In this document: positions 4,848-42,565 of the stretch, one piece after another
How positions within the stretch are numbered: position 1 is the stretch's first letter
How the letters are laid out: each line of letters starts with the position of its first letter
Assembly (NCBI GenBank): GCA_029548485.1
Contig: JAKPNH010000006.1
Location: forward strand, 13,937-77,936
From: a bacterium
GTDB taxonomy: Bacteria; Patescibacteriota; Minisyncoccia; UBA6257; Colwellbacteraceae
Direction: 5' to 3'
DNA: 64,000 nucleotides
Position numbers and translations under genes: made by a program
The notes under the pieces: model-generated
The model's input: the letters and a program-made list of their open reading frames with translations, nothing else
Database searches by the model: none
Told to the model about the DNA's origin: nothing

Positions 4848-4852
4848 GCATC

Positions 4853-9102: not shown

Positions 9103-9115
9103 TTTTCCTTTTAAT

Positions 9116-9138: not shown

Positions 9139-9145
9139 ATTGATG

Positions 9146-9217: not shown

Positions 9218-9224
9218 CTTCGGC

Positions 9225-9404: not shown

Positions 9405-9490
9405 ATATCTATTTTAAAACAACGGATGTTTTTTAGAAATATGCGTCAGTTAAAGAACTAGCCCACATAAGTGGGCTAGAATCGTTTGCG

Positions 9491-9898: not shown

Positions 9899-9923
9899 CC
9901 CTCAAAGACCTTATTAGTTATAT

Positions 9924-9952
9924 TTAATATAACAATTTAGAGAGATTGTCAA
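9924..9952 (-). promoter_or_regulatory. Sigma-70-like promoter (TTGACA-N17-TATTAA) for the membrane-protein gene
   Basis: The hexamers were read on the minus strand immediately upstream of the GTG start. Confidence 0.5.
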
Positions 9953-9953
9953 A

Positions 9954-10403: not shown

Positions 10404-10423
10404 ATGCTTTTATTATACATTCT

Positions 10424-10465
10424 TGGATAAAAAATAGGACGAGGTTGCCGTTAGGCTGCTCGTCC
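10424..10465 (-). terminator. Intrinsic terminator (minus strand) after the 10478..10819 gene
   Basis: Stem ggacgag/ctcgtcc followed by TATTTTTTAT on the minus strand. Confidence 0.55.
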
Positions 10466-10477
10466 CGAAGACCTAGG

Positions 10478-10819
10478 CTAAAGAGAAAGAGCGTGGACGC
10501 CGTGGCGATAATTATCCGTAGCCAGGCGGATTTCATTGGCCGCCTTAGGGCAGTCGCGACTGGCCCTTTTCAGTGCTTCGACGATTGCCTCTTCGTCCAT
10601 CTGGCAGACCTCCTTAACGCTAACCGCCCTTTGCAAGGCATTAAGCGCCAATTGGAACTGCCGGCTGCGGGAGAGATGGGGATATCTGACGCCAATATCC
10701 TTTAGCTTTTTCAGCAGGGTTTCCTCTTTAACGTTTATCAAGGCTTTTCCCTCCTTTCTCCTTGAACGCATAATATCCAATATGCGTTGTTTTGCAAGTC
10801 GCGTTCTCCCAGGCTTCAA
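10478..10819 (-). CDS. Hypothetical small basic protein
   Basis: A 113-aa ORF. The start may be the internal Met ('MRSRRKEGK'). Confidence 0.45.
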   Translation of the reverse strand: MKPGRTRLAKQRILDIMRSRRKEGKALINVKEETLLKKLKDIGVRYPHLSRSRQFQLALNALQRAVSVKEVCQMDEEAIVEALKRASRDCPKAANEIRLATDNYRHGVHALSL

Positions 10820-10841
10820 GAAGCCTTGCTATAATGTTTAT

Positions 10842-11144
10842 ATGAAAGGTTTCATTAATTTTATCAGGGAGCAGAAGGTAGTGGGGCTCGCGGTCGGGTT
10901 TATCCTCGGCGGCGCCGTTTCAAAGGTCGTTTCCTCGTTGGTATCGGATATTATCAATCCTATTTTATCCGTGATTTTGGGAGCGGCGGACGATCTAAAA
11001 AATGCGATCTTGCAGATCGGCCCGGTTCGAATACTCTACGGCAATTTCTTGAGTGCCCTTATCGACTTCACGGTGGTCGCCGCGGTTGTCTATTTCGGGG
11101 TGAATATGATCGGCATAAACAAGCTTGACAAGAAAAAAGAATGA
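10842..11144 (+). CDS. mscL: Large-conductance mechanosensitive channel
   Basis: 'MKGFINFIREQKVVGLAVGFILGGA...NPI' is the MscL N-terminus and TM1. The protein is 100 aa. Confidence 0.85.
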   Translation: MKGFINFIREQKVVGLAVGFILGGAVSKVVSSLVSDIINPILSVILGAADDLKNAILQIGPVRILYGNFLSALIDFTVVAAVVYFGVNMIGINKLDKKKE

Positions 11145-11192
11145 TATTCTTTAAAAACAGCCTCGATTCGCGGGGCTGTTTTTTAATCTCGT

Positions 11193-11741
11193 TTACTTTA
11201 AGAACCTGAAGGACGAAACGATATTCTCCGCCGTCTCCGCGTAATCTGTGCCATAGACGGCGATGAACAGATATTCGGTCGGACTTTTTTCTATATAGTA
11301 TCCCGGTCCGTCCGGGCCGTCGCCTCCGGAATGGTCGATTTTCAATACCTGGAGTCCGTTGATTTCGGTCGCGACAAGATTGCCGCTCGGACGCATGTCT
11401 CCGTCTTCGGCGAGGCTATCCCTAATGAAAGATATGAGGTTGTTGTCTGCTGGCTTGGCGTTGAGCCCGGAGATTTCGATAACTACCCGATCGGCTTCCA
11501 TCTGATCTCCTTCGGGATAATTGGAAAGAAGGAGATCGGACTCGTCGATCGGATCCACAGGCCCCCAGGAAGAAGGGTATTTAATGGAATACCCTTGAGA
11601 AACATTTTCGTATCTGGACCAGCCAGCCGTGGGATCCAGCGACCTCCTTACGACCATTATCATGAAAACAACGACCACAACGACCAATAGAATTAAAAGC
11701 AATATATTAATGGTTCTTTGGTTCATAAGATCATTATACAA
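11193..11741 (-). CDS. Membrane-anchored hypothetical protein
   Basis: An N-terminal poly-Leu/Val TM segment followed by a soluble domain. Confidence 0.5.
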   Translation of the reverse strand: MYNDLMNQRTINILLLILLVVVVVVFMIMVVRRSLDPTAGWSRYENVSQGYSIKYPSSWGPVDPIDESDLLLSNYPEGDQMEADRVVIEISGLNAKPADNNLISFIRDSLAEDGDMRPSGNLVATEINGLQVLKIDHSGGDGPDGPGYYIEKSPTEYLFIAVYGTDYAETAENIVSSFRFLK

Positions 11742-11810
11742 TTTTCTTTTATCTTATTCCTTGTTTTCTTCAGAAAAGATCAAAAATCCCGTTAAAACGG
11801 GATTATCTAG

Positions 11811-11882
11811 TGCCCCCGGGAGGAATCGAACCCCCATTACGAGATCCGCAATCTCGCGTCCTATCCGTTGAACGACAAGGGC
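11811..11882 (-). tRNA. tRNA-Arg (anticodon GCG, an unusual isoacceptor). CCA is not encoded.
   Basis: Manual cloverleaf: anticodon loop TTGCGGA. The D-loop and T-arm are nearly identical to tRNA-Arg(TCG) at 25217. Confidence 0.7.
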
Positions 11883-11978
11883 AATGTTTAAAGATTAGGC
11901 GTTTTAAAGCCAAAAATCAACGAGTTCTATCCTCGCGTTGCGGCATTTTCCGAATTCCGATATTCTTGTTTATATATC

Positions 11979-12692
11979 ATGGCCAAGAACTACAAAAAGG
12001 ATTTTTCCTATTCATACGCCGTCGGCGTTTTTCCGGTAATCGAGCTTTTAAGAAATAAGCCTGATAAAGCCACTAAGGTCTATATCCATCCGAAAGGCGA
12101 GAGGAACACCGGCATAAAAGAAATAGTGGACATTTGCGGAAAAGCGGACATTCCGATCGAGAAAAACGGCCGCTTTATCGAAAAAGTCTCTTCAAGCGAG
12201 AATGTTTACGCGGCCGCTGTTTTCAATAAATACGAGAGCCGATTAAATCCGGACGTGAACCATGTGATCCTGGTGAATCCGAGCGATCCGGGAAACCTGG
12301 GAACGATCTGCCGGACCATGATCGGATTCGGCTTCTCCGATCTCGGGATCATCAAGCCCGGAGCCGATATTTTCGATCCGAAAACGATCCGGGCGTCCAT
12401 GGGCGCGATCTTCCAGCTGAATTTCCGATATTTTTCTTCATTCGAGGAGTATCAAAAGAACTTCAAGCAGAACGTATATGTTTTCATGACCGACGCTAAA
12501 GAAACTTTGGGCAGGTTCTCTTTCAAAAAACCCTATGTTTTCGTGTTCGGAAACGAGGGAGGAGGACTCGATCCAAAGTTCAAAAAAATAGGCGACAGCA
12601 TAAAAATCCCGCAAAGCGGCAAAGTGGATTCTTTGAATCTTTCGGCGGCCGTGGCCGTGAGCCTCTACGAAGCAGGGAAGCCGAATCTTTAG
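11979..12692 (+). CDS. SpoU/TrmH-family RNA 2'-O-methyltransferase
   Basis: 'NPSDPGNLGTICRT', 'VFGNEGGGL' and 'SLNLSAAVAVSLYE' are the SPOUT methylase motifs. Confidence 0.85.
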   Translation: MAKNYKKDFSYSYAVGVFPVIELLRNKPDKATKVYIHPKGERNTGIKEIVDICGKADIPIEKNGRFIEKVSSSENVYAAAVFNKYESRLNPDVNHVILVNPSDPGNLGTICRTMIGFGFSDLGIIKPGADIFDPKTIRASMGAIFQLNFRYFSSFEEYQKNFKQNVYVFMTDAKETLGRFSFKKPYVFVFGNEGGGLDPKFKKIGDSIKIPQSGKVDSLNLSAAVAVSLYEAGKPNL

Positions 12693-13183
12693 AGGGGCCT
12701 AAGCGGATTGTTCCGCAAGATATCTTCCACTTCTTCGAATCCTTCGGGAAAAGCGAAGTTATATCTCGCCGGCAAAGCAAAAACGTAATTTTGGTTCCGG
12801 CCGAGCTCCATCGGAGGGATCGGCGCCGCGGAAACAAAAAGATCGTCCGCCATCACCTTGGTCCATTGATCGATGGTGAAAACCATGATCGGAATATCTT
12901 GTCTCGGTTTTTCTTCGGTCCAATGCGGATGCCTGATGAAAATAAGCGGACCCTCTTCGGAAAAGATATCTCCCGTTTCTCCGGGGATATGCCCTTGCCA
13001 AACGGATTCGACGATCGTGTATCCTTGCCAGCTTAACGGTAGGTCAAAAGAGAATCCATGTTGGCTGTTTTGATATTCAAGAGAAGTCGTCGGCTGATCG
13101 ACTTTGTTTTTTAAAACGTAATAGCTCGCGAGGCCGATCGCGGCGATCAAAATGAGGATCAAAAGGACATTTTTGTTTTTCAT
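12689..13183 (-). CDS. Secreted/membrane-anchored hypothetical protein
   Basis: Signal-anchor 'MKNKNVLLILILIAAIGLA'. Its start overlaps the stop of the upstream gene (ATGA). Confidence 0.5.
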   Translation of the reverse strand: MKNKNVLLILILIAAIGLASYYVLKNKVDQPTTSLEYQNSQHGFSFDLPLSWQGYTIVESVWQGHIPGETGDIFSEEGPLIFIRHPHWTEEKPRQDIPIMVFTIDQWTKVMADDLFVSAAPIPPMELGRNQNYVFALPARYNFAFPEGFEEVEDILRNNPLRPL

Positions 13184-14229
13184 ATGCCAATTTTATCTCC
13201 GAAAGGTCGGATCTCCAAATCCACGAAATCGACCAGATAGCCGTCTACTTCGTCTTTTTTCTTGTACTCGAAAACCGGCCGGCTGTCTTTGAAAATAACG
13301 ATTCTGTCTTTTTCCGCCACAAGACTGTCTCCGAGAGACAGATTTTGTTTTACCCGGTTTTCTACAAAGGTAAACGGCGGCACAGTTCCAGTATATTTCA
13401 AGATTCCATTTTCCACTTTTCCGTCGAAGGCGATCCAGTCGAAAGTATTAAAAATCAAGAAAGGCCTTTGTAAGGCATTCTTAAAGAAATCGAACAACTC
13501 GGGAATATTCTCCTTCATCCATTTGGCTACCAGGCGTCCGATTTCGACGCTTTTTTCGCAATCATAGCGGCAAGGAAGATGGGTGATGAAAGAGACATTC
13601 AACAAATTTATTTCTTTTTCTTCATTGCCTGCGGCCATAAGGAATTTTAGATGATTGCTTTCGCTGTTTTTTCTCCAATACTCATCAGCGTTTTTAAAAT
13701 CTTCGGGAGTGTCGAGCCTGGTCGGGAAATTCAGAAGGTTATTGATGACAAACGGAGCAGATTGATTCGGAGGAAAAATATCGAATATCAGTTGGCGTCC
13801 GCGGATATAAGGGGCTTGGGTCACTCTTTTAACATGTCTTTTGACGCAGCATTCGGGATACCCGAGAAACTTTCCGAGTTCGTAGTTATTCGAGACGTTC
13901 TCGGCTGCCTGCTCCGCCAGACGTCGATCTCGAGAAATCAAGGCGATTTCTTTTCGTTCTCCTAAAATATTTTTATTTGTTTTGACGATATGCGCTTCCG
14001 GAAAAACGGAACGAAAATTCTCGATTTCGGCTTCCTTGTAAGCCGCGTAAATTACCGGTTTTATACCGATGATGAAACTTATCAGTTCGGAGATGTAAAT
14101 ATCAGAAGTATATTCGGCGCCGAAATAGGAGGCGATAATGTCCCGGTAGTTCATAGGTTTATCGTGTCGCTGCCACATTCGTTTTGTGGCTTGCGGTATT
14201 TTTCTTCGACAAAATCCCTGCTTTTCCAA
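13180..14229 (-). CDS. Hypothetical Cys-motif protein ('GYPECC..H', 'HLPCRYDC')
   Basis: A long ORF with possible metal-binding or thiol-active motifs. No family was recognised, and the true start may be an internal Met. Confidence 0.5.
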   Translation of the reverse strand: MEKQGFCRRKIPQATKRMWQRHDKPMNYRDIIASYFGAEYTSDIYISELISFIIGIKPVIYAAYKEAEIENFRSVFPEAHIVKTNKNILGERKEIALISRDRRLAEQAAENVSNNYELGKFLGYPECCVKRHVKRVTQAPYIRGRQLIFDIFPPNQSAPFVINNLLNFPTRLDTPEDFKNADEYWRKNSESNHLKFLMAAGNEEKEINLLNVSFITHLPCRYDCEKSVEIGRLVAKWMKENIPELFDFFKNALQRPFLIFNTFDWIAFDGKVENGILKYTGTVPPFTFVENRVKQNLSLGDSLVAEKDRIVIFKDSRPVFEYKKKDEVDGYLVDFVDLEIRPFGDKIGI

Positions 14230-14315
14230 CGATATCCATTAAGTAAGACATAATCTACATAGATAAATTACACGAGAAAGCCTTTTTCGACAACAAAAAA
14301 GCCCATACGATATCA

Positions 14316-14567
14316 TCATCGTATGGCCGCAGCCCGCTTTATCGGGCCAAGATTTCGGCCGCCAGCCTTTCTATCAAACAAAAGTTCTGTCCAGCCTTCC
14401 GGGATATAGTCTCCGGAGGCGATAAGCCGTTCGTATTCGTCGATCCATCCCTCGACGTTTTAGTCTCCTTTGATTTCGACGGAGACACCTGACTCGGCGT
14501 GGATAATACGGATTTTATTGTAGGGTAAATCGGGTGACGCGGCAATGAGTCCGAATCTCGGTTTCAT
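14316..14567 (-). pseudogene. Small ORF interrupted by an in-frame TAA at codon 36. This is either a pseudogene or a readthrough candidate.
   Basis: Manual translation gives 'MKPRFGLIAASPDLPYNKIRIIHAESGVSVEIKGD*NVEGWIDEYERLIASGDYIPEGW...'. It is protein-like on both sides of the stop in the same frame. Confidence 0.5.
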
Positions 14568-14616
14568 GGTATGATTACAATAATTGTTGAAGAACAAATA
14601 AGGTAAGAATCATTTC

Positions 14617-15039
14617 ATGCAACCCTGGATTATTTATTCTTTGCTGTCGGCGATTTTCGCGGCTTTGGTTGCGATTTTGGGAAAGATCGGAGTCCAAAAT
14701 ATCGACAGCACCTTGGCCACAACGGTCCGCGCCTTTATTATGGCCGGATTTTTGTTTTTGACTGTCTGGTTTTCGGGAAAATTGCCGTTATTGGGCACCA
14801 TTCAAAGCGGCCCCTTATTGTTTATTGTGCTGTCGGGCATCGCCGGCGCCGTATCCTGGCTATTTTATTTTCTGGCCCTCAAACAAGGAACAGCCACCGG
14901 CGTGGCTGCTTTAGATCGATTGAGCATCGTCTTTGTGTTGATTTTTTCATTATTGTTTTTGGGCCAAAAGCTCACTTGGAAAGCGGGCATCGGAGCGATT
15001 CTCATGGTTTTCGGCGCGATTTTGATGACCCTTCAGTGA
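14617..15039 (+). CDS. Small DMT-superfamily (EamA/SMR-like) 4-TM transporter
   Basis: 140 aa with four hydrophobic helices ('ILGKIGVQ', 'LALKQGTATGVAAL'). Confidence 0.65.
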   Translation: MQPWIIYSLLSAIFAALVAILGKIGVQNIDSTLATTVRAFIMAGFLFLTVWFSGKLPLLGTIQSGPLLFIVLSGIAGAVSWLFYFLALKQGTATGVAALDRLSIVFVLIFSLLFLGQKLTWKAGIGAILMVFGAILMTLQ

Positions 15040-15102
15040 GAAATCCGTATTTATCCTTCGAAGCCATCGGGATTCCGACCGTGAATTATTAAAACAAAGA
15101 AT

Positions 15103-19610: not shown

Positions 19611-21709
19611 GATTCCGCCATCAAGCAGGTTTGTTTTTTGCCCGGAAGGGATTGATAGATTTCTTCGGTCGTGAAAGGCATGAACGGATGGAGCATTTTG
19701 ACGAGTTCCCGGAGAAGGCGGAGAAGGGTTTCTCCGGCCGCGGCCTTGTCCGCCGCGTCTTCGTTGTCCTTCAGCCTCGGTTTGGATTCTTCGATTATTT
19801 TGTCGGCGAAAACGTGCCAGAAATAGTGGTAGAGCTTGTTCGACGCTTCGTGGAGCCGGAAATTCTCGATGTCGCGCTCAATCTCTTTTTTAAAGATCTT
19901 CAATTCCCTCAAGTTGTCCAGATCTTTCCTGGAAAACCGGGGTTTGATTTTAGAGTCGGATCCGGCGTAGGCGAGGACGAATTTGGCCGCGTTCCTGATC
20001 TTGGTCGCGAAGTTGCGGTAGGCCCGAATTTTGTCTTCGGAAACGACCGGATCGAGCCCCGGGGTGTTGCCGACGATAAGAGCCATTCTCACGGCGTCGG
20101 CTCCGTAGATTTCGGCCACGCCCAAAGGATCGATGACGTTGCCTTTGGACTTCGACATTTTCTGGCGGTCTTTGTCGCGGACCATTCCGTGGAAATAAAC
20201 GTTCCGGAACGGAGCTTTCTTGGTCCGCCAGAGCCCCAGCATGATCATGCGGCTCACCCAGAAGAAAACGAGGTCGTATCCGGTTTCCATGAGGTCGGTC
20301 GGGTAATAGGTTTTGAAGTCGCGGGACTTGGGGAATCCCAAGGCAAGGAAAGGCCATTGCCCGGAAGAAAACCAGGTATCCAGAACGTCGGGATCTTGTT
20401 CGAGGATCGAGCCGTCGCATTTTGAACAGCGATCCGGGGTTTTTTCAGAGACGACGGCTTCTCCACATTTGGCGCAGAACCAGGCGGGGATTCTGATGCC
20501 CCAGACGATCTGCCTCGAAATGTTCCAGTCGTGGATATTCTCGAGCCAGTGGATGTAGATCTTTTCGAAATGTTCGGTGACGAATTTTATTTTCCCCGAT
20601 CTCACCGCCTCCAATCCTTTTTCGGCAAGAGGCTTCATTTTGACATACCACTGGGGCATGATCATGGGTTCGATCAAACTGCCGCATTTGTAGCAGGTGG
20701 CGACGCTGTGGCGGTAATCCTCTTCGATCTTTTCGAGACGGCCGGCTTTTTCGAGGTCAACGGCCACGGCCGCTCTCGCTTCGGCGGCTTTCATTCCTTT
20801 GTAGGGTCCGGCGAATTCGTTCATTTTTCCGTAGCGATCGATGACGGATTTCACGGGAAGATCGTGCTTCAGCCCGGTTTCGAAATCGGTCATGTCGTGC
20901 GCCGGCGTCACTTTGACGACGCCGGTCCCGAAATCCGGATCGACCGATTCGTCGGCCACGACCGGCAGTTTGATTTTGCCGAGCAGGCCGTCGAATTCGA
21001 TATCCTGGCCGATGTAACTCTTATAGCGATCGTCTTTGGGATTGACTGCCAGCCCTGTGTCTCCGAAAATCGTCTCCGGCCGCGCCGTGGCGACGCTAAG
21101 CGGGCCGTATTTTATGTAATAGAGCGGATCGGCGCGCTCGACGTATTTCACTTCCAGTTCCGAAAAAGCGGTCTGGTGCTTAGGGCACCAGTTTACCAGC
21201 CGGCTGCCGCGGTAGATCAATCCTTGTTTGTGGAGTTCGACGAAAGACTTTTGCGTTTCCCGGATGATGTCCTCGTCGAGGGTGAATTTTTTACGGGACC
21301 AGTCGCAAGAAGCGCCGAGCTTGCGAAGCTGGTTTTCCATGGTTTTCCTGTTTTCTTGGGTGAAGGCGTACATTTCCCGCCAAAGCTCTTCGCGGGGAAT
21401 CTCGAAGCGGTTCCTTCCTTCTTTCTCCAGTTTTTTCTCGAAAACCACCTGGGTTTCGAATCCGGCGTGGTCCGCGCCCGGAACCCAGAGGGCTTTACGG
21501 CCCATCAGGCGGTAAAAACGGATAAAAGCGTCTTCGATGGCGATGCCCAGGGCGTGACCGAGGTGCAGGGCGCCGTTCGCGTTCGGCGGCGGCATGATAA
21601 TCGTGTAAGGCTTGCGGTTTTTCCGGGGAAGGTTATCCGGGTTGAAATACCCGGATCTTTCCCAAAGTTCGTAGATTTCGTCCTCTTTCAGGGGTTTGAG
21701 CTCGATCAT
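19601..21709 (-). CDS. valS: Valyl-tRNA synthetase (compact, 702 aa)
   Basis: 'PPPNANGALHLGHA...LWVPGADHAGFETQ' and 'KMSKSKGNVIDP'. Confidence 0.85.
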   Translation of the reverse strand: MIELKPLKEDEIYELWERSGYFNPDNLPRKNRKPYTIIMPPPNANGALHLGHALGIAIEDAFIRFYRLMGRKALWVPGADHAGFETQVVFEKKLEKEGRNRFEIPREELWREMYAFTQENRKTMENQLRKLGASCDWSRKKFTLDEDIIRETQKSFVELHKQGLIYRGSRLVNWCPKHQTAFSELEVKYVERADPLYYIKYGPLSVATARPETIFGDTGLAVNPKDDRYKSYIGQDIEFDGLLGKIKLPVVADESVDPDFGTGVVKVTPAHDMTDFETGLKHDLPVKSVIDRYGKMNEFAGPYKGMKAAEARAAVAVDLEKAGRLEKIEEDYRHSVATCYKCGSLIEPMIMPQWYVKMKPLAEKGLEAVRSGKIKFVTEHFEKIYIHWLENIHDWNISRQIVWGIRIPAWFCAKCGEAVVSEKTPDRCSKCDGSILEQDPDVLDTWFSSGQWPFLALGFPKSRDFKTYYPTDLMETGYDLVFFWVSRMIMLGLWRTKKAPFRNVYFHGMVRDKDRQKMSKSKGNVIDPLGVAEIYGADAVRMALIVGNTPGLDPVVSEDKIRAYRNFATKIRNAAKFVLAYAGSDSKIKPRFSRKDLDNLRELKIFKKEIERDIENFRLHEASNKLYHYFWHVFADKIIEESKPRLKDNEDAADKAAAGETLLRLLRELVKMLHPFMPFTTEEIYQSLPGKKQTCLMAESWN

Positions 21710-33227: not shown

Positions 33228-33229
33228 CC

Positions 33230-33436
33230 ATGGGAATATTCGATCAGATGAAGGCGGCGCAGGAAATGATGAAAAACATGTCTCCGGACGATTTGCGGAA
33301 CATGATGAAACAGGCCGAAGACAGCAAGAAGATGCTCGAAGAAATGGTGAAGAAGGCGGTTGAAGAGGAAATTGTGAAGAGGGATTTGATTTCCCGGAGC
33401 GAAGCCGAAAAACTCCTCCGGGGTTTTGAAAAATAG
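33230..33436 (+). CDS. Small helical hypothetical protein (68 aa)
   Basis: A Met/Lys/Glu-rich ORF immediately after the HD gene. Confidence 0.4.
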   Translation: MGIFDQMKAAQEMMKNMSPDDLRNMMKQAEDSKKMLEEMVKKAVEEEIVKRDLISRSEAEKLLRGFEK

Positions 33437-33467
33437 CTTGAGGACTGCTAATCTGAATTGGCAGTTC

Positions 33468-33538
33468 GGGCCTATGGTCTAGTGGCAGAACACGGCATTC
33501 GCATTGCCGGGACGGCGGTTCGATTCCGCCTAGGTCCA
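33468..33538 (+). tRNA. tRNA-Ala (anticodon CGC), with the G3:U70 identity pair
   Basis: Manual fold: acceptor GGGCCTA/TAGGTCC, anticodon loop TTCGCAT. Confidence 0.8.
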
Positions 33539-33669
33539 CAGAATATTTTTTCGCGGCCGATGTTTTTATTGATAAATGATTCGGCTTCGTTCTTGACATT
33601 CACTCAAGAATATGTTCTCTTAAGAGAGTTTTAGAGAGCTCTTTTAAATCCGGAAAGGAGTGAAACTTC

Positions 33670-34323
33670 TTGAGTTTGGACTGGTGGATTGTCGTAACCG
33701 GACTTTTGTTTTGGTTACTCATCTCGCGGCTCAGCAGGCATCAGCCGGAACGCGCCGTAGAATGGCTGTCGGCCATTCTAACGAAAAGTCCTCACGATGG
33801 CGGGCCTTGGCTTTCGAGGCGTATCGGCCCCCTGGAATGGCAAGATTGGTGGCGAAGCATTGGGAAAATGGCACGGATTATCCGCGTCAAGTGTATCCCG
33901 GACAACGACGTGTTGTTGATCGGGGCTTTTCAGGCCACGGACAATGCCGCCGAAGTCGATATCTACCAGGAAGTATTCCGACATCGCCTGGGTCGCCCGG
34001 TCTTTCTTCCTCGCGTTTTCCGACGGGGACTGGAGACTACGGTTCAGGTCGATATAGCTTTCGGCGTCGCGTTACAAGAAGGAAAAGGAATCGTTTTCCT
34101 CGCGACCTGGCTGCATTACTTGAGGGTACTATGGATTATCCGTCGTCACCCGGATTCGAGAACAGTTCCATGGGAACTCTATGGAGCTTTCGGCATTCCA
34201 AGGCCGAAAGAAGCTATCACCGACGTCTTTCTGACGGTCGGATATCCGGTTCTTGACTTACTCGGTCTAAAACAATGGTTTGTAGACTTGACCGATGTTC
34301 GTCGAGCCCAGGGAAAGCACTAG
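33670..34323 (+). CDS. Hypothetical Trp-rich membrane-anchored protein (TTG start)
   Basis: AAAGGAG lies 9 nt upstream of the TTG. The N-terminal TM is 'LDWWIVVTGLLFWLLI'. The stop is followed directly by an intrinsic terminator. Coding status is not certain. Confidence 0.5.
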   Translation: MSLDWWIVVTGLLFWLLISRLSRHQPERAVEWLSAILTKSPHDGGPWLSRRIGPLEWQDWWRSIGKMARIIRVKCIPDNDVLLIGAFQATDNAAEVDIYQEVFRHRLGRPVFLPRVFRRGLETTVQVDIAFGVALQEGKGIVFLATWLHYLRVLWIIRRHPDSRTVPWELYGAFGIPRPKEAITDVFLTVGYPVLDLLGLKQWFVDLTDVRRAQGKH

Positions 34324-34337
34324 CCGTCGAAGAATAA

Positions 34338-34376
34338 GGCCCCGATCGGTATATTACCGAAAGGGGCTTTTTTGTT
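34338..34376 (+). terminator. Intrinsic terminator
   Basis: aggcccc...ggggctt stem with a nested inner stem, followed by TTTTTTG. Confidence 0.65.
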
Positions 34377-34408
34377 TCCAGTCTTTGTTTTTGTGCTAAA
34401 GTATTCTT

Positions 34409-35434
34409 ATGAATCTGGTCGAAATAACGTCGGAAAAAGAATTCGATCCGCTGGCCGTGAATCAAGGCGCGCCTTTTACTCAGAGCTGGTTTTACGGGGA
34501 TTGGCGGGCCGAAGAGAAAAGGGAAGTGAGGCGTTTTTTGATCGAAGACGGAGGCGAAGCTGCGGGCAGCATCCAGGCGATCCGTTATCCGCTTACTTTC
34601 AACAAAAGCTACATATATATACCTTACGGTCCGGTATTGAAGAATAACCTGACGGAAAAAACCGCTTCTTTTTTAAAAAAATCCCTGAAAGAAGTTTTCA
34701 ACGACGGAAAAACGGTTTTTATCCGTTTGGATTTCTGGCCGGCGATAAAAGACCGTTTGGAAAAAACCGCCGGAAAGTTTTTTACAAAATCTCCCAGAAG
34801 CTCTTATCGCGGGTCGAATTTCCAGCCGCGGGCCGAACGGGTGATCGACCTGAAGCAGCCGGAAAACGAAATCTTTCTCGCTATGGAACCGAAGGCGAGG
34901 TACAACGCCAGGCTGGCCTTGAAAAAAGGCGTAATCGTCAAAACCATTACCAAGAATTTTCTGGATTATTTCGAGGATTTTTATTCTTTGATGACGGAAA
35001 CCGCCAGCCGGGACGGCTTCAGCCTTCATCCCCGGAGCTATTACGAAGAAATCTTCAACAGCTTAGAAAAGCGTAAGAATGCTTTTTTGGCCCTGGCGTT
35101 TTACGGAGACACGCTCCTCGTGGCGAACCTCGTCGTTCTTTACGGAGAAACCGCTTTTTTTCTTTTTGGGTCTTCTTCGTCCGAACACCGCGAGCTGATG
35201 CCTTCTTATCTCTGCCAGTGGCAAAGCATGAGAAAGGCGAAAGAGTTCGGGTTTTCCTATTACAGCTTCGGCGGAATAAGCCATAAAGGATTGAACAGAA
35301 GCTGGGAAGGGATCTCCGTTTATAAAAAGAAGTTCGGCGGGTTTATCAAGGAATACTCTCCTTTTTACGATCTGGCCATCCAGCCGTTTTGGTATTATCT
35401 TTATATCCTGAAGAAAGTTTTTTCCGGCCGATAA
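34409..35434 (+). CDS. FemAB-family peptidyltransferase (peptidoglycan interpeptide bridge formation)
   Basis: The FemX-like layout and 'LVVLYGETAFFLFGSSSSEHRELMPSYLCQW'. Confidence 0.75.
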   Translation: MNLVEITSEKEFDPLAVNQGAPFTQSWFYGDWRAEEKREVRRFLIEDGGEAAGSIQAIRYPLTFNKSYIYIPYGPVLKNNLTEKTASFLKKSLKEVFNDGKTVFIRLDFWPAIKDRLEKTAGKFFTKSPRSSYRGSNFQPRAERVIDLKQPENEIFLAMEPKARYNARLALKKGVIVKTITKNFLDYFEDFYSLMTETASRDGFSLHPRSYYEEIFNSLEKRKNAFLALAFYGDTLLVANLVVLYGETAFFLFGSSSSEHRELMPSYLCQWQSMRKAKEFGFSYYSFGGISHKGLNRSWEGISVYKKKFGGFIKEYSPFYDLAIQPFWYYLYILKKVFSGR

Positions 35435-35437
35435 ACC

Positions 35438-36748
35438 ATGAAATCTTTTTTGAGAAAACTCACGCCGCAGCCGATACTCAAGGCTTATCATTATTCGATG
35501 GCCAAACTCGGCGCTTTGGTTTACGGATTTCCGTCGAGGAAAATGCTCATTATCGGCATCACCGGCACCAAGGGAAAAACTTCGACCGCCAATTTCATCT
35601 GGAGCCTCCTCAATTTTTCAGGCTGGAAGACCGGAATCGTCAGCACGGCCAATATCAGGATCGGAGACGAGGAATATCCGAACGCCTACCATATGACCAT
35701 GCCGGGAAGATTCGAGATCCAGAAGTGGCTGAAAAAAATGCTCGACGCCGGCTGCCGGGCGGCGATTGTCGAGACCACCTCCGAAGGGATCAACCAGTAT
35801 CGGCACAAGGGCATCGAATACGATTTTCTGGTTTTCACCAATTTGACTCCGGAACATTTGCCTTCGCACGGCGGCAGCTTCGAAAAATACAAGGAAACCA
35901 AGGGCAGAATTTTCGCCGATCTTGAGAAAACCAGGAGAAAAACCCTCCAGGGCAGAGCCATTAAAAAAATCTTTGTCGTCAATGGCGACAGCGAACACAA
36001 AGATTATTTTTTGGGTTTTAAGGCGGACAAAAAAATCACTTTCGGAATCAGGGAAAAAGCGGATTACCGGGCGGAAAACATCAAGACTTTGAACGAAGAA
36101 ACGAGCTTCGATCTCGGATCCGATCATTACGCCGTTTCCATCCCGGGAAATTTCAACGTCTATAACGCCTTGCCCGGAATTATTATCGCCAAAGGACTCG
36201 GCATTCCGGCCGCGGACATAGCCGCCGGATTGAAACGGCTGAAAACCATTCCCGGCCGGATGGAAAAGATCGACGAAGGCCAGGATTTCGCGGTTTTCGT
36301 CGATTACGCCCATGAGAAAGAAAGCCTGACCGCGGTTTTGGAAACGGCCGAATCCATGTCCCCGAACCGCATCATTATTCTCCTCGGAGCCGAAGGCGGG
36401 GGCCGGGACAAATCCAAACGGCCGGTGATGGGAAAGTTGGCCGGAGAAAAAGCGGATTATGTGATCATCTCGAACGTCGACCCTTACGAGGACGAGCCCG
36501 GACCGATCATCGAAGATATCGCCAAGGCGGCCGAAGAAGCGGGTAAGACCAAAGATAAGAATCTTTTCCTGATCGAAGACCGCCGGACGGGCATCCGGAA
36601 GGCGCTTTCTCTTGCGGAAAAAGGAGATGTGGTTTTGATCACCGGCAAAGGAGCGGAACAGTCGATCATCATCGGCGGCAAAAAACGCTCCTGGGACGAC
36701 AGAAAGGTCGTCAGAGAAGAATTGAAAAAGATTTTAAATAAAAATTAA
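35438..36748 (+). CDS. Mur ligase family protein (MurE-like; it lacks the N-terminal UDP-MurNAc-binding domain)
   Basis: 'IIGITGTKGKTST', 'DYAHEKESL' and 'GAEGGGRDKSKRP'. Confidence 0.75.
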   Translation: MKSFLRKLTPQPILKAYHYSMAKLGALVYGFPSRKMLIIGITGTKGKTSTANFIWSLLNFSGWKTGIVSTANIRIGDEEYPNAYHMTMPGRFEIQKWLKKMLDAGCRAAIVETTSEGINQYRHKGIEYDFLVFTNLTPEHLPSHGGSFEKYKETKGRIFADLEKTRRKTLQGRAIKKIFVVNGDSEHKDYFLGFKADKKITFGIREKADYRAENIKTLNEETSFDLGSDHYAVSIPGNFNVYNALPGIIIAKGLGIPAADIAAGLKRLKTIPGRMEKIDEGQDFAVFVDYAHEKESLTAVLETAESMSPNRIIILLGAEGGGRDKSKRPVMGKLAGEKADYVIISNVDPYEDEPGPIIEDIAKAAEEAGKTKDKNLFLIEDRRTGIRKALSLAEKGDVVLITGKGAEQSIIIGGKKRSWDDRKVVREELKKILNKN

Positions 36749-36750
36749 AC

Positions 36751-37857
36751 ATGAATAAAATCAAAAAAATATTGTTCGTTATTCTGCTCATAGGAATTTT
36801 TTGGTGGATTCTTTACGACTGGAGCGATTGGAAAATAGAAATGAACCAGGAACAGGTTTTGTCGGACGAGAAAAATTATTCGGAACCGATCGGCGGAGAG
36901 ACAGCAAGTCCGGCTATCGACCCTCGGACCCTTGTCTGGAAAAAAGCTTCTTCAAACGCTCCCTGGGCGCCGAGGGATTCGCAGGGAGGGATCGTCTTTG
37001 ACGGGAAAATGTGGATCTTCGGAGGGCTTCGCGGATTTCCCGAAGCCGAAAACAATTACGGCGTGGCGTCGCACTTCAACGACATCTGGAGTTCGGAAGA
37101 CGGCGTAAACTGGACTCTCGAAAAAGAACACGCCGCCTGGTCTCCGCGAAGATCGATGTCCGTCGAATATTTCAAAGGCAAGCTTTGGATGTTCGGCGGT
37201 TGGAGCACGACCACCGGATACCGCACCGGCGTCTGGGTCTCGGATGACGCCATCAATTGGAAACAGGTTCTGAAAGACGCGCCTTGGGGCGGACGCGAAG
37301 GCCAGACCTCGGCCGTGTTCCAGGGGAAGCTCTGGATGTTCGGCGGATTGAGTTTCGGCGCCAGGCTCGGGGACCAGAATCTCAAAAACGACGTGTGGAA
37401 TTCCGAAGACGGCATCCATTGGAACCTGGTGAACGAGAATGCCGGATGGGCTCCGCGCTACGATCAGGGCGCAACGGTCTTCCAAGACAAGCTCTGGGTG
37501 GCCGGAGGCGTGAGCCACGGCGAGGCCATGAACGATGTCTGGAGTTCGAGCGACGGAATAAACTGGGTTTTGGAAAACGGGAACGCTCCCTGGGAGAAAA
37601 GGCACGGCGTGCCTTTGGTGAATTACAAGAATCGCTTGTGGATTGTAAGCGGCTGGGGAAGCGTGAACGATAAGGGAACGCAAGACGCCTGGTACTCGGA
37701 AAACGGGAAAGATTGGCAAAAAGCCGGAGATTTGGAATGGCCCGGCCGGGAAGACCACGAGGTGATGGTTTTCCAAGACAAGCTTTGGGTGATGGCGGGC
37801 ATGGGGCCTTTCTGGGTTTGGAACAGCGATGTCTGGTATTCGGACTTCGGAAGATAG
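36751..37857 (+). CDS. Secreted beta-propeller repeat protein (Asp-box-like 'SxDGxxW' / 'KLWxFGG' repeats)
   Basis: A signal-anchor followed by six to seven ~47-aa repeats. Confidence 0.65.
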   Translation: MNKIKKILFVILLIGIFWWILYDWSDWKIEMNQEQVLSDEKNYSEPIGGETASPAIDPRTLVWKKASSNAPWAPRDSQGGIVFDGKMWIFGGLRGFPEAENNYGVASHFNDIWSSEDGVNWTLEKEHAAWSPRRSMSVEYFKGKLWMFGGWSTTTGYRTGVWVSDDAINWKQVLKDAPWGGREGQTSAVFQGKLWMFGGLSFGARLGDQNLKNDVWNSEDGIHWNLVNENAGWAPRYDQGATVFQDKLWVAGGVSHGEAMNDVWSSSDGINWVLENGNAPWEKRHGVPLVNYKNRLWIVSGWGSVNDKGTQDAWYSENGKDWQKAGDLEWPGREDHEVMVFQDKLWVMAGMGPFWVWNSDVWYSDFGR

Positions 37858-37877
37858 CATTCGGCTATAATGAATGT

Positions 37878-38420
37878 ATGCCCCGGATAGAATGCGAGAT
37901 ACGCAGTTTTATCGACAAACCGAAATACGAAGAGCTGATCCAAAGGCTTAAAAAAGAAGCGGAGTTTTTGGGCGAGCGGGACGAGGTCACTTATTACCTC
38001 GACGTGCCGCAAGACTTGCGGATCCAGCGGAACGACGATTACGCCAAGATTTGGCTTAAAAAGGGTAAGCTTCACGACGAGGCGAGAGAGGAAATCGAGA
38101 TCCGTTTTTTCAAAGACGATTTCGGGAAAATGGAGAATATGTTGTCCGTCATCGGCATCAATCCGGAAATAAAATGGTTCCGCAAACGGAACGAGTTCTC
38201 ATGGAAGGGAATCCGCGTTTTCGTCGATCATACCAAAGGATACGGATACATTTTGGAATTCGAGCGGATCGTCTCTCCCGAAAAGCAGGAAGCCGCGATT
38301 TCGGATTTGAGAAACAAAATGGCCGAACTCGGCGTGGAAGAGACGCCGAAAGAGGTTTTCGACAAGGCGTTCCGGGATTACAAGGAGTCCTGGCCTTCGC
38401 TTGTGGAGAAAGAACAATAG
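37878..38420 (+). CDS. CYTH-domain (triphosphate tunnel metalloenzyme) protein
   Basis: N-terminus 'IECEIRSF' (ExExK-like), 181 aa. Confidence 0.6.
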   Translation: MPRIECEIRSFIDKPKYEELIQRLKKEAEFLGERDEVTYYLDVPQDLRIQRNDDYAKIWLKKGKLHDEAREEIEIRFFKDDFGKMENMLSVIGINPEIKWFRKRNEFSWKGIRVFVDHTKGYGYILEFERIVSPEKQEAAISDLRNKMAELGVEETPKEVFDKAFRDYKESWPSLVEKEQ

Positions 38421-38497: not shown

Positions 38498-39184
38498 ATG
38501 ACTGTTTTAAATTGGTTGGAGCCATTCGGATGGGCGATCCAGAGATTCTGGTATGAATATCTGTCGCAGCCGTTTATGACTTTGCTCGGTGCGGCGGTCC
38601 TGTTCATCATCGGACTTTTCATCGCGCGCCTTATCGAAAGGTTGGTCGCCCAGGCGGTCAGAGCCTTGAGAATAGATTCGCTTTTGAAGAAAGCCGGAAT
38701 CGAGCCGTATCTCGATCGGGCGAACATCAAACTCGACAGCGGAAAGTTCTTCGGAAAGCTCATCTATTGGTTCATCGTCGGCGCTTTGCTTTTGGTGATC
38801 GCCGACAAGTTCGGCCTTCCGGTGGTGTCGCAATTCATCAGCACCATTTTGAGCCAGGCGACCAGTTTCGTCGGCGCCATCGTCATATTGGTGCTCGCGG
38901 TCATCGTGGCGAATTTCGTCCGGAGCGTCATCCGGGCGGCGGCCATGGGCGCGAAAATGCAGTCGGCGAAACTCATCAGCGTTTTGAGCTGGTGGATCAT
39001 CGTCTACTTCGGCTTGGAGAACGCCTTGAGCAAATTGGGCATCGATATCAGCTTGCTCAAGAATCTGATCTACATTCTCGGAGTGGGACTGAGCTTCGCG
39101 GTCGCCATCGCTTTCGGCATGGCCGGCAAGGATTACGCCAATTCTTTGATCGAGAAATGGCGGGATCAGGTGGACAGGGATTAA
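38498..39184 (+). CDS. Integral membrane protein with an internally duplicated TM module (MscS-associated 'conserved TM helix' type)
   Basis: Two similar halves, 'LIYWFIVGALLLVIADKFGLP' and 'WWIIVYFGLENALSKLGIDI'. Confidence 0.5.
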   Translation: MTVLNWLEPFGWAIQRFWYEYLSQPFMTLLGAAVLFIIGLFIARLIERLVAQAVRALRIDSLLKKAGIEPYLDRANIKLDSGKFFGKLIYWFIVGALLLVIADKFGLPVVSQFISTILSQATSFVGAIVILVLAVIVANFVRSVIRAAAMGAKMQSAKLISVLSWWIIVYFGLENALSKLGIDISLLKNLIYILGVGLSFAVAIAFGMAGKDYANSLIEKWRDQVDRD

Positions 39185-39245: not shown

Positions 39246-40061
39246 TCGGCGGGCCAGGCCGGGGGTTGACACGGCCAAAGGCCTGCCTGTATAATTCCTC
39301 TCAGATGATGATGCGAAAGATTCACATAAAACGCGGCTCATGAAGTCTTAGTTTTGGTGACTGAATGAACCGCGAAAGCGGTTTTTTTGTTGAGACGACC
39401 GGTATTTCAAAAAATGAATATAATTTGCGCCGACAAACACGGCGCAAAGCAGGAGTCCGCAAGTTCAAACTGGCGGACTTAATTGGCATTTAAATGACCG
39501 GTTTATTTTTTTAAGGGCGCATGGAGGATGCCTTGACACAAAGTGACGATGAAGGACGCGGCGTAGCGGCGATACGCCTCGGGGAGGCGCGTAGCAGCCT
39601 TCGATCCGGGGATTTCCGAATGGGGAAACCCAATCCCGCAATCCGGGATTGATTCCGCACGTAAGTTGCGGAATAGTCGACCCGCTGAAGTGAAACATCT
39701 TAGTAAGCGGAGGAATAAAGAACAATTGTTATTCCCTTAGTAGCGGCGAGTGAAAAGGGAAGAGCCCAAACTTGTTTGAAGTTTACGGCGCAAGCCGGAA
39801 ACGGAAAGCGAGGGTAGTAAGATAGAGACATTCTATTTATGAAGCCGCTCGATGAGAAATCGGAGAGCGACTTTATAAATAGAGGAAAGTTACAAAATGG
39901 TTCGTTAGCCGAATGGACTGGAAAGTCCGGCCAAAGGGAGTGAAAGCCTCGTAGGCGAAAACGAATCATCTTTCTTGTTTTTAATCTTGAGTACTTCGAT
40001 GACAGGAAGCTTCGAAGGAATCATCCCGAACTATCGGGAAAGGCTAAATACACTTTGTGAT

Positions 40062-40098
<37 letters not shown>

Positions 40099-42075
40099 CA
40101 GCCCGGTGAGGGCGGTGAAATAGAACTGAAACCATGTGCTTACAAGGACTCGGAGCCCCGCTTCGGCGGGGTGACGTGGTGCCTATTGAAGAATGAGCCA
40201 ACGACTTTATATTGACTGCTCGGTTAATCCCGCTTTGCGGGAGCAGCCACAGGGAAACCTAGTGTTAAAAGCGCGAACGTCCGCAAGGACAAGGTAGTCA
40301 ATATAAGACCCGAAGCCAAGCGAGCTTACCTTGGTCAGGATGAACTTCCGCGAAAGCGGGAGGGAGGTCCGCACCAGTTGATTGTGCAAAATCTTTGGAT
40401 GAACTGAGGTAAGTAGTGAAAAGCTAATCGAGCTTGGTAATAGCTGGTTCTCTCCGAAATAGTTTTAGGACTAGCGCCAAGAACCGCTTTAGCGGGGGTA
40501 GAGCTACTGGTTTGGTGGTAAAGGGCGAAAGCTCGGCCACCGAGTCAAACTCCGAATACCGCTTTAGAAAAACTTGGTAGTCAGACTGCGGAGGCTAAGC
40601 CCCGTGGTCGAAAGGGAAACAGCCCTGACCGTCATCTAAGGTCCCCAAATTCTTGCTAAGTGTTAAAGGCAGTGCCATGCCATCGACAGATAGGAGGTTG
40701 GCTCAGAGGTAGCCATCCTTTAAAGAGTGTGTAACAACTCACTATTCGAATCCCGCTTTGCGGGAGTGGCGTGACGCGCCGAAAATGTACCGGGGCTAAG
40801 CAAGATACCGAAGATACGGATGTTTCGCGCAAGCGAAGCATGGTAGGAGAGCATTTGGAGCGCGCCGAAGGTCGACCCGCGAGAGCGACTGGAGTGCTCT
40901 GAAGAGAGAATGTTGGCATGAGTAACCCACTTAACCGGTGGGAAACCGGTTCCCCGAAAATCCTAGGTTTCCGTGGCAATGGCAATCATCCACGGGTTAG
41001 GCGGCCCTAAGGCAATGGCGAAAGCCGCAGCCGATGGACTGTTGGTTAATATTCCAACCCTTCCATTTCTTTCGACGGGAGGACGAAGCGCAGTAGGCCA
41101 GGCATCTCAATGGTTTGGTGTCCGTGGTCTAAGGATGGCATTCTGGCAAATCCAGGTGCCTGTCTTTGATGGCGAATCCAAGGACAGCGGCGAATCAAAG
41201 CATTTACTTTGGTGAGTTGGTTGAGCGCGTTTCCGCGAAAAATCTCTAAGGTTAAAGGAATGGAATCCGTACCGGAAACCGACACAGGTGGATAGGGCGA
41301 GTAGCCCAAGGGGTACGAGTGATTTCTCTTTAAGGAACTCGGCAAACAAGCGACCGTAAGTTAGCGATATGGTCTTCCCGCCGCAAGGCGGGACGCAGCG
41401 AAAGTCTCTCTGGCGACTGTTTACTAAAAACACAGCTTCCTGCGAACTCGTAAGAGGATGTATAGGAGGTGACGCCTGACCGATGCGAGAAGGTTAACGG
41501 CGGGGGTGAATTCGGAGCAATCCGGATTTGCTCGCTGCCCGAAGCCCTCGTCAATGTCCGCGGTAACTATAACCGTGTTAAAGTAGCGCAATTCCTTTTC
41601 AGGTAAGTTCTGAAGCGCATGAATGGCGTAACGATCAGAGAACTGTCTCAAAGAGAAGCTCGGTGAAAATGCGATTCCCGTGAAGACGCGGGATACCTGC
41701 AGCTAGACAAGAAGACCCCGGGAGCTTTACTGCAACTTGGTATTGGCTTTAGGGTTTGGATGCGTAGCGTAGTGGTGAGGCTTTGAAGTCTTGTTTTCGG
41801 ATGAGACGGAGCCGACGATGAAACAGCCATCTTTCAAACTTTAAACTCTAACCTTAAGGGCAAAAACCTTAGGGAACAGTGCCTGGCGGGCAGTTTTTCT
41901 GGGGCGGAATCCTCCCAAAGAGTAACGGAGGAGTTTATTAAGGTCAGCTTGGCTCGGATGGAAATCGAGCCTGAAGTGTAAAGGCATAAGCTGGCTTAAC
42001 TGCGAGACCCACAAGTCGAGCAGATGCGAAAGCAGAACTTAGTGACCCGACGAATCTTTATAGAAAGGTCGGAGA

Positions 42076-42109
<34 letters not shown>

Positions 42110-42245
42110 GGTGTTGTCCGAGAGTCCCTATCGACGACAACGCTCGGCACCTCGATGTCGGCCCACCCTAGCGCGGGGCTGGAGAAGGTCCCAAGCGTGT
42201 GGCTGTTCGCCACTTAAAAGGGTACGCGAGCTGGGTTTAAACCGT

Positions 42246-42502
42246 CAGTTTGGCGGCTTTCCCGAGCAATCGGGATTGAAAAAGCTTACTCATATCGGTG
42301 AAGTCCTAAACTTATAATTGCGATATAACCTGTCAATATTTAGGATAATACCGAGGGAAGTTTGCTTTATTGAAATAAAGCATAACCCCGTAGAGACTTG
42401 TTCCTGAGGGAACGGATGGAAGAAATCTTCCATAAGACGTAGGCCTCCATTGAAAAATGGATGATGGTATAGTCCACACATTTGGTAACAGATGATTCAA
42501 TG
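42246..42502 (+). other. Intervening sequence in 23S at the L2593 site (a classic group I intron site). 257 nt, no ORF.
   Basis: By alignment to E. coli, the 5' exon ends at U2593 and the element ends in G. It has GNRA hairpins (CCCGA-GCAA-UCGGG; CUUUAUU-GAAA-AAUAAAG). Confidence 0.6.
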
Positions 42503-42565
42503 CGTGAGACAGGTTGGTTTTTATCTGCTGCAGGCGTGAAGTGTTTGAGGGAAGTCGACCCTAGT

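Follow-up and report, generated by a model that had tools for sequence, protein, structure and literature searches.

A MurE-type ligase without the uridine-binding domain, encoded beside a FemAB-family gene, in a Patescibacteria genome

Background

The ligase MurE has three domains in textbook accounts and is a target for antibiotics. Here, we describe a two-domain MurE-type ligase that is encoded directly downstream of a FemAB-family transferase in a 64,000-nucleotide stretch of DNA from a member of the Colwellbacteraceae, within the Patescibacteria (Candidate Phyla Radiation, CPR; GenBank assembly GCA_029548485.1, contig JAKPNH010000006.1, positions 13,937 to 77,936 of the forward strand). 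This whole stretch is called the window below, and unless a related locus is named, positions are those of the window. The window has a Patescibacteria (Parcubacteria-type) look in its small genes, its rRNA arrangement and its nearest protein relatives, which are named Patescibacteria, Colwellbacteria, Minisyncoccales, Kaiserbacteria and Azambacteria. A first-pass annotation, made from the sequence alone, had grouped five genes at 33670-38420 into an unusual cell-wall module and had judged the ligase to be a MurT-like or other stem-peptide ligase rather than a canonical MurE.

In solved MurE structures the domain that recognizes uridine is domain 1 (PMC3829189; PMC3133487). In the Staphylococcus aureus enzyme this uridine-nucleoside-binding part comprises residues 1-98, and in the known structures most of the N-acetylmuramic acid (MurNAc)-peptide is held by the central domain (PMC3829189). 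The amino acid to be added is bound at another site: in enzymes that add meso-diaminopimelate (mDAP), the Asn and Arg of a DNPR motif bind the distal carboxylate of mDAP, while the S. aureus enzyme has DNPA and uses Asp406 and Glu460 to serve the lysine amine (PMC3829189). MurT, which belongs to the GatD/MurT lipid II amidotransferase of S. aureus and S. pneumoniae, is a known member of the Mur-ligase family that lacks the N-terminal nucleotide-sugar-binding domain (PMC6113224); it has a DUF1727 C-terminal domain, requires GatD and acts on lipid II. The described enzymes closest to the FemAB-family protein are S. aureus FemX/FmhB, a lipid II:glycine glycyltransferase (6SNR), and Weissella viridescens FemX, a cytoplasmic transferase of 335 residues that adds L-Ala to uridine diphosphate (UDP)-MurNAc-pentapeptide (1NE9, 4II9).

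A MurE ligase without domain 1

The core of the locus consists of the following features:

34409-35434, + strand: FemAB-family (FemX-like) transferase, 341 residues (PF02388, 6.9e-34); core part
35438-36748, + strand: MurE-type Mur ligase without domain 1, 436 residues, with Mur_ligase_M and Mur_ligase_C only; core part
from 35555, + strand: P-loop of the ligase, G40-T48 (sequence motif)
36476-36487, + strand: V-D-P-Y motif of the ligase, residues 347-350, in place of DNPR

Judged by profile and by modelled fold, the ligase is a MurE. Its score against TIGR01085 (murE) is 345.8 bits, with a cutoff of 257.3, and the match covers positions 63-471 of the 472 in the profile; the score against the equivalog NF001126, 361.3 bits, is slightly under the cutoff of 373. 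The Pfam searches proposed in the first-pass annotation matched PF02388 in the FemAB protein and, in the ligase, Mur_ligase_M (1e-35) and Mur_ligase_C (PF02875, 1.8e-24), with no DUF1727. The motifs GITGTKGKTST, DYAHE and GGGRDK, which that annotation had listed, are all found. In an alignment of 32 family members, the invariant positions include G40-T48 (GITGTKGKT), E112, the N135/H140 region, K155, D289-Y-A-H292 and G320-GGRD324. A lysine in the Y151/K155 region, likewise invariant in this alignment, aligns with the position that we take to be the carbamylated lysine.

An AlphaFold2 model built from the same 32 sequences (pLDDT 89.7, pTM 0.89) points in the same direction. Its best Foldseek matches are all MurE, with TM scores of 0.81-0.83 over the whole query and about 0.72 when normalized to the target, a gap that is expected for a protein without one domain of the target. 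The matches that come after MurE are MurC, cyanophycin synthetase and MurF. Compared with the known three-domain enzymes, to which it is 26-33% identical, the short ligase has kept the central ATPase and C-terminal domains with the P-loop, DYAH, GGGRD and the Glu of GKGxE. What is absent is domain 1, some 85-110 residues with a uridine-binding, Rossmann-like fold, and on that side of the protein only the helix preceding the P-loop is kept.

Several lines of evidence indicate that the absence of a UDP-MurNAc-binding N-domain is real and that none is encoded nearby, as the first-pass annotation had held for the ligase itself. The N-domain family PF01225 has no Pfam match in the 436 residues, and residue 20 of the ligase already aligns with residue 105 of the Mycobacterium thermoresistibile MurE and residue 131 of the M. 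tuberculosis MurE. Upstream of the P-loop the reading frame stays open for only 40 codons, up to a stop immediately past the stop codon of the FemAB gene, which in turn lies 3 nucleotides before the MurE start. Moreover, a hidden Markov model (HMM) of 39 canonical MurE N-domains, run against six-frame translations of the 64-kb window and of 45 related CPR loci (723 kb), found nothing at E<=10; as a control, the same HMM matched 54 proteins in non-CPR loci. An N-domain that has been split off, or one encoded upstream in another frame, which the first-pass annotation had named as a finding that would refute its reading, is rejected on the evidence of the stop, the 3-nucleotide gap and the blank HMM search.

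The short form is the standard MurE of the Patescibacteria loci recovered

The truncation had been read as the mark of an unusual module. That view did not hold up: each of the Patescibacteria loci recovered has the short form as its standard MurE, even where the gene lies beside mraY, ftsW and murG. The 120 best homologues, which are 59-95% identical to the query, have 430-470 residues and M and C domains only, with one exception of 510 residues in which Pfam likewise finds no N-domain; many of them carry a MurE annotation already. A scan of loci, with one genome per species and with peptide patterns drawn from the short family, returned 80 loci. In all 46 of the Patescibacteria MurE loci recovered the frame is interrupted by a stop 40-85 codons ahead of the P-loop, while in the non-CPR loci (Firmicutes, Elusimicrobia and other groups) 99-179 residues precede it. 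Among the short-form loci are records labelled Peregrinibacteria (a 1.44-Mb chromosome), Peribacteria, Nomurabacteria, Liptonbacteria, Campbellbacteria, Paceibacterota and Saccharibacteria, as well as two lineages that use genetic code 25.

The 1.84 billion representatives at 50% identity, searched exhaustively, gave a similar picture, with about 145 short clusters outranking the first canonical MurE. That protein (P0260, 516 residues, with PF01225) is encoded on a soil contig with CHAT/TPR and Ser/Thr-kinase genes, which is not CPR-like. Some of the short representatives have additional parts: P0261 and P0166 are fusions, with an N-terminal riboflavin kinase (575 residues) and a C-terminal DUF192 domain (613 residues), and in several members of 480-500 residues the central domain is split by an insertion.

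The gene context in other lineages resembles that of known murE genes, being of the dcw type in some of them. Two loci (L017 and L018) have the order S11 DD-carboxypeptidase, short MurE, MraY, FtsW, MurG, and the Peregrinibacteria chromosome (L027) has MurE, TruB, MraY. A further locus, L016, has FtsW, MurG, glutamyl-tRNA synthetase, an M23 peptidase, FemAB, short MurE, a DDAH-like protein, a YkuD/S11 protein and a 480-residue Mur ligase. This last ligase is MurC with an intact PF01225 N-domain, and the domain loss therefore concerns MurE alone rather than the Mur ligases of CPR as a whole. The window, too, encodes FtsW/RodA and MltG, 7-8 kb downstream and past the rRNA genes. KEGG counts for Patescibacterium genomes give exactly one murE (K01928) each (PMC11809585 Table S6). 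Considering that the short gene occupies the usual place of murE in some lineages, it is most likely a housekeeping enzyme, and the 436-residue ligase is most likely the ordinary housekeeping MurE of its lineage.

Two further observations concern these contexts. The cell-wall cluster of L016, which comes from another Patescibacteria metagenome-assembled genome, is compact (3975-15046 of that locus) and encodes a DDAH/arginine-deiminase-like protein and a fusion of a YkuD L,D-transpeptidase with an S11 domain; the presence of the glutamyl-tRNA synthetase and of this amidino-group enzyme beside FemAB-MurE may have a bearing on the stem-peptide residues. In 13 other loci (L021, L023-L026, L028, L031, L033, L036, L044, L048, L058 and L070) ruvA lies directly upstream of the short MurE, often preceded by a gene for ribosomal protein S20 in the reverse orientation; this second recurrent arrangement has no evident connection with the cell wall.

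Annotations as MurE and as FemA/FemB family are already public, and the identities of the two genes are thus not new. We found no description in the searchable literature of a MurE without domain 1, or of the stem-peptide chemistry of CPR bacteria. What is apparently undescribed, in that no account of it was found in the same literature, is a Patescibacteria MurE clade that lacks the uridine-binding domain and has x-D-P-Y in place of DNPR.

The residue-3 pocket

The second peculiarity of the clade lies in the pocket for the added amino acid. Where known MurE enzymes have DNPR (mDAP type) or DNPA (S. aureus), the short ligases have x-D-P-Y. The window MurE reads N-V-D-P-Y at this site, invariant in its close family, and all Patescibacteria sequences that extend over this site have [V/E/D/T]-D-P-[Y/F]; DNPR is the reading in most of the non-CPR control sequences. 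The GKGHE motif of the known enzymes has become GKG[A/S]E, the Glu being kept in CPR MurE and the preceding His replaced by Ala, Ser or Gly, and there is a one-residue insertion in G-GGxRD throughout the clade. By its position in the GKGHE motif, the retained Glu would correspond to Glu460 of S. aureus and Glu468 of E. coli.

These changes suggest a different amino acid in position 3 of the stem peptide. Because the carboxylate-binding Asn and Arg have given way to Asp and Tyr, so that an acidic residue is added, and because the amine-binding Glu is retained, we infer a residue of the Lys/Orn type: on the sequence evidence, CPR MurE most likely adds L-Lys, L-Orn or a similar diamino acid, and not mDAP. 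The motif does not correlate with the presence of an adjacent FemAB gene, x-D-P-Y being common to all CPR sequences.

The FemAB protein and its pairing with MurE

The protein encoded directly upstream of the ligase belongs to the FemAB family (PF02388, 117.8 bits in two stretches, cutoff 24; Acetyltransf_6, 47.8 bits). Against the FemX equivalog NF047883 (UDP-MurNAc-pentapeptide-lysine N6-alanyltransferase) it reaches 56.4 bits, with a cutoff of 500, and it is a member of the family, not a demonstrated orthologue of Weissella FemX. The best match by sequence in the PDB is S. aureus FemX/FmhB (6SNR, 4.1e-19), a protein of the same family in which a helical arm of 76 residues (chain 230-306) separates the two matched stretches; this arm is absent from the CPR protein. 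In architecture it is closer to Weissella FemX, with about 340 residues, no coiled-coil arm, two GNAT-like lobes (alignment over residues 40-309) and the Lys of an F/Y-K pair kept near the C-terminus ('YK' here, 'FK' in Weissella); like Weissella FemX it would be cytoplasmic. The two differ in that the CPR protein has only 36-37 bits to the PDB sequences and falls far below the equivalog cutoff. Homologues of about 340-350 residues, annotated as FemA/FemB family, occur in Paceibacteria and Peregrinibacteria.

How often do the two genes occur together? The 44 CPR MurE loci used for the count form 37 clusters at 70% identity. A FemAB gene lies immediately upstream of the short MurE, on the same strand, in 15 of the loci and 10 of the clusters, with a spacing that ranges from a 4-nucleotide overlap to a 53-nucleotide gap. 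The pairing includes loci in which MurE is just 37-41% identical to the query, and the arrangement is found in none of the 41 non-CPR loci. The FemAB-MurE pairing is thus recurrent; it is probably functional but not obligatory. The idea in the first-pass annotation that the pair serves peptide branching is reasonable in light of this recurrence, while its other suggestion, amidation, found no support. A FemAB-MurE fusion, as evidence for a link, was not encountered: the longer MurE representatives are the riboflavin-kinase fusion, the DUF192 fusion and the members with insertions.

A model and its alternatives

We propose, with a probability of roughly 0.7, that the conserved unit is a femX-like gene followed by murE, a pair for cytoplasmic synthesis of the peptidoglycan precursor in which the ligase is an ordinary MurE. 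At the level of sequence, the clade has an intact MurE-type ATPase/ligase core, an altered residue-3 pocket throughout and, often, a FemX-type gene upstream. In the model, the MurE clade of CPR would have lost domain 1, the Rossmann-like, uridine-binding part, and substrate binding would rest on the central domain. The short MurE would add a diamino acid of the Lys/Orn type, and the FemX-like protein would then transfer a branch residue from an aminoacyl-tRNA to the side-chain amine of the residue that MurE had added. The predicted outcome is a bridged peptidoglycan like that of Gram-positive bacteria. Branching on the amine of the MurE-added residue would explain why the FemAB and MurE genes are frequently adjacent and translationally coupled.

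A number of points weigh against this model. The patterns used in the locus scan were biased to the short form, and the result therefore supports a statement about all loci recovered and not about all CPR. A second, long MurE elsewhere in the source genome is unlikely, although the scan covered loci and not the whole genome. In L044 there is a second short Mur-ligase gene (20511-21329 of that locus) 10 kb downstream of the short MurE on the same contig, with a P-loop at residue 38-40 and a Mur_ligase_M match of 2e-38 in a sequence cut by the end of the locus; short-form paralogues therefore exist in at least one genome. The specificity of MurE is not reliably read from motifs, and S. aureus MurE has little intrinsic specificity for Lys (PMC3829189). 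Finally, FemAB is not adjacent to MurE in about 73% of lineages, and of four look-ups centred on FemAB genes, one found a short MurE overlapping the FemAB stop (L093) and three found FemAB alone.

Perhaps the short enzyme is an accessory stem-peptide ligase that works alongside a full-length MurE of the canonical kind, whose gene would lie elsewhere in the genome. Like other non-canonical Mur-family ligases it has no UDP-binding domain, its specificity motif is unusual, and the two paralogues of L044 show that short forms can coexist. Yet the score is above the MurE cutoff, the gene stands in the place of murE by mraY, ftsW and murG in several lineages, none of the 46 Patescibacteria loci has a canonical MurE, Patescibacterium genomes have one murE each (PMC11809585), and the nearest canonical MurE comes from the non-CPR soil contig. 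An accessory role is quite unlikely on this evidence. One of the identities suggested in the first-pass annotation, MurT, here as an enzyme that would amidate the D-iso-glutamate of lipid II, is very improbable. It takes its appeal from MurT being a known Mur-family enzyme without the N-terminal domain, but the ligase scores only 37.4 bits against NF045635 and 34.1 bits against NF052464 (cutoff 800 each) and carries Mur_ligase_C at its C-terminus instead of DUF1727. The 50 best structural matches listed include no MurT chain. Nor is there a gene for GatD or another glutamine amidotransferase near the ligase, whose neighbours are FemAB, Kelch, CYTH and MscS genes, and the gene-context tables of the relatives contain no amidotransferase.

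The loss of the domain that recognizes uridine from a whole clade could also reflect a changed substrate or partner: the ligase would act on a lipid-linked or other non-UDP precursor, or another protein, for example the FemX-like one, would hold the nucleotide. MurT, a lipid II enzyme that likewise lacks an N-domain, offers an analogy, and FemAB and MurE are often coupled; the Weissella relative of the FemX-like protein binds UDP-MurNAc-pentapeptide. However, most of the MurNAc-peptide is bound by the central domain (PMC3829189), a neighbouring CPR MurC keeps its UDP-binding domain and mraY adjoins the short murE, which argues for an ordinary UDP-linked pathway, and FemAB is missing from the neighbourhood in most lineages. 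We therefore regard a changed substrate or partner as unlikely, and the same holds for its bolder form, in which Patescibacteria MurE no longer recognizes uridine and would work on a non-UDP MurNAc-dipeptide or in a complex with the FemX-like protein, adding a non-DAP residue through the x-D-P-Y pocket. The last alternative is that all five or six genes form one cell-envelope module, with the Kelch and CYTH proteins acting together with FemX and MurE. The genes are tight and co-oriented, with gaps of 2-20 nucleotides, and L004 and L007 share the order FemAB-MurE-Kelch-CYTH-MscS, of which L005 shows the part up to Kelch. Against such a module, Kelch and CYTH lie by MurE only where MurE identity is 76-87% and in none of the 40-plus other loci, and the propeller is extracellular or membrane-anchored while MurE and FemX are taken to be cytoplasmic. 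One module is accordingly an unlikely description, and we retain the femX-murE pair as the conserved unit.

Neighbouring genes

The pair is flanked by the following features:

33468-33539, + strand: tRNA-Ala(CGC), found by ARAGORN and Rfam; start of the variable stretch upstream of FemAB
33670-34323, + strand: DUF218-like membrane protein, 217 residues, with an N-terminal transmembrane or hydrophobic helix and a putative, divergent DUF218 (ElyC/SanA/YdcF-like) domain
34336-34373, + strand: intrinsic-terminator-like hairpin followed by a U-run (RNA fold), between the DUF218-like gene and FemAB
36751-37857, + strand: Kelch/Asp-box propeller, 368 residues, membrane-anchored, six-bladed (PF24681); lineage-specific neighbour
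37878-38420, + strand: CYTH protein, a putative triphosphate-tunnel metalloenzyme, 180 residues (PF01928); lineage-specific neighbour
38498-39184, + strand: MscS-like membrane protein, 228 residues (PF05552, 8.2e-9); closes the syntenic block ahead of the 23S rRNA gene

The five genes are indeed co-directional and tightly spaced, with gaps of 3 nucleotides between FemAB and MurE, 2 between MurE and Kelch and 20 between Kelch and CYTH. The last figure takes the ATG at 37878 as the true CYTH start, which is likely; the listed open reading frame, 37713-38420, opens with a TTG at 37713 that overlaps the Kelch gene and is an unlikely start. They do not, as had been supposed, make up a single unit. 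The hairpin at 34336-34373 (-24 kcal/mol, z = -3.51, with none of 200 shuffles equally stable) and its U-run separate the first gene from FemAB, and the first gene is therefore taken as its own transcription unit. The Kelch gene is probably co-transcribed.

The Pfam matches of the propeller and the CYTH protein are in line with the families named in the first-pass annotation. The Kelch protein scores 78.4 bits against PF24681 (cutoff 50) and 4.3e-13 against Kelch_1. Its N-terminus, KIKK followed by a hydrophobic stretch, looks like a signal anchor, there are six GKLW.FGG repeats or blades, and the blades carry Asp-box-like SxDGxxW motifs (WSSEDGVNW, WVSDDAINW, WNSEDGIHW, WSSSDGINW and WYSENGKDW); on these three features the propeller is placed outside the cytoplasm. 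A 302-residue antisense open reading frame over the Kelch gene (36952-37860) is probably an artefact of composition. The CYTH protein reaches 32 bits against PF01928 (cutoff 23.2; 1.4e-7) and 33 bits against TIGR00318 cyaB, below the cutoff of 57.95. It starts MPRIECEIR, in which the ExExK signature of the family reads E-C-E-I-R (ExExR), with Arg for Lys, and in the PDB it has a weak match to the triphosphate-tunnel metalloenzyme Saci_0718 (1.5e-4). The PDB matches of the Kelch and CYTH proteins, generic ones to Kelch and triphosphate-tunnel proteins, gave no functional lead. The MscS-like protein scores 45 bits against NF033912, under the cutoff.

Conservation of this part of the locus does not reach far. 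A Kelch gene lies beside MurE only in L004, L005/6 and L007, a CYTH gene follows it only in L004 and L007, and the MscS-like gene is syntenic in L004 (97% identity) and L007 (85%); in L005 the contig ends after Kelch. Downstream of MurE, Kelch, CYTH and MscS are thus confined to the three closest relatives, at 76-87% MurE identity, a distance at which descent alone suffices to keep the order, and the synteny therefore carries no functional weight. The synteny that the first-pass annotation proposed to check accordingly extends across lineages for FemAB-MurE (10 of 37) and only among close relatives for the other genes, which are probably co-oriented passengers of this genus- or family-level group.

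The first gene stands further apart. It has no direct match in Pfam or NCBIfam, PF02698 giving none even at E<=1, and a set of 5.8 billion proteins holds just 5 homologues of it. PF02698 is present in homologues at 8e-25 to 8e-28, and in the family formed by the first gene and four homologues (A2), three of the five members match DUF218, best at 3.8e-8; by this transitive link, the first gene appears to be a relative of the DUF218 (ElyC/SanA/YdcF) proteins. An AlphaFold2 model has a pLDDT of 63.9, and Foldseek found no match to it in the PDB below E = 0.1. The counterpart in L004 is 53% identical, while the flanking genes there are 82-97% identical, and the gene is absent from L005 and L007. 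It is thus an independent, fast-evolving unit outside the conserved pair.

Indeed, the whole interval from the HD gene and tRNA-Ala to FemAB varies between relatives (33228-34408 in the window, 6522-8964 in L004, 2059-8981 in L005 and 4047-8978 in L007, each in its own numbering). In L005 it holds a serine recombinase, a helix-turn-helix protein, a DNA methylase, an R.HinP1I-like endonuclease, Vsr and an OLD-family nuclease; in L007, a PGA_cap protein and two proteins without assignment; and in L004, an extra CYTH, an HD protein and a DUF218-like gene, so that L004 has two CYTH genes (6940-7488 and 12442-12981). The interval looks like an integration hotspot beside a tRNA gene.

On the other side of the block lies the 23S rRNA gene (39501-42561), whose match exceeds the Rfam model by about 136 nucleotides. 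Just upstream, at 39266-39295, lies a perfect sigma-70 consensus (TTGACA, 18 nucleotides, TATAAT), and a terminator-like hairpin at 39367-39384 stands between this consensus and the rRNA gene. The 5S rRNA is about 700 nucleotides downstream of the 23S (region to 43370), and the stretch between them has no open reading frame of at least 150 residues. No 16S rRNA gene was found in the window.

Significance

The locus is most likely not an unusual module: it would hold the normal murE of its lineage and some neighbouring genes. As a five-gene module it is ordinary; as a pointer to a MurE clade without domain 1 it is moderately interesting. If a very large bacterial radiation runs on a two-domain MurE, the uridine-binding domain of this enzyme would be dispensable, and the short form would offer a natural minimal scaffold for the study of substrate recognition. 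The loss of domain 1 also provides a simple sequence marker of the clade. The altered motif and the recurrent FemX partner lead to a testable prediction about the cell wall of Parcubacteria, which is still uncharacterized: its stem peptides would be branched and of the Lys/Orn type, as in Gram-positive bacteria.

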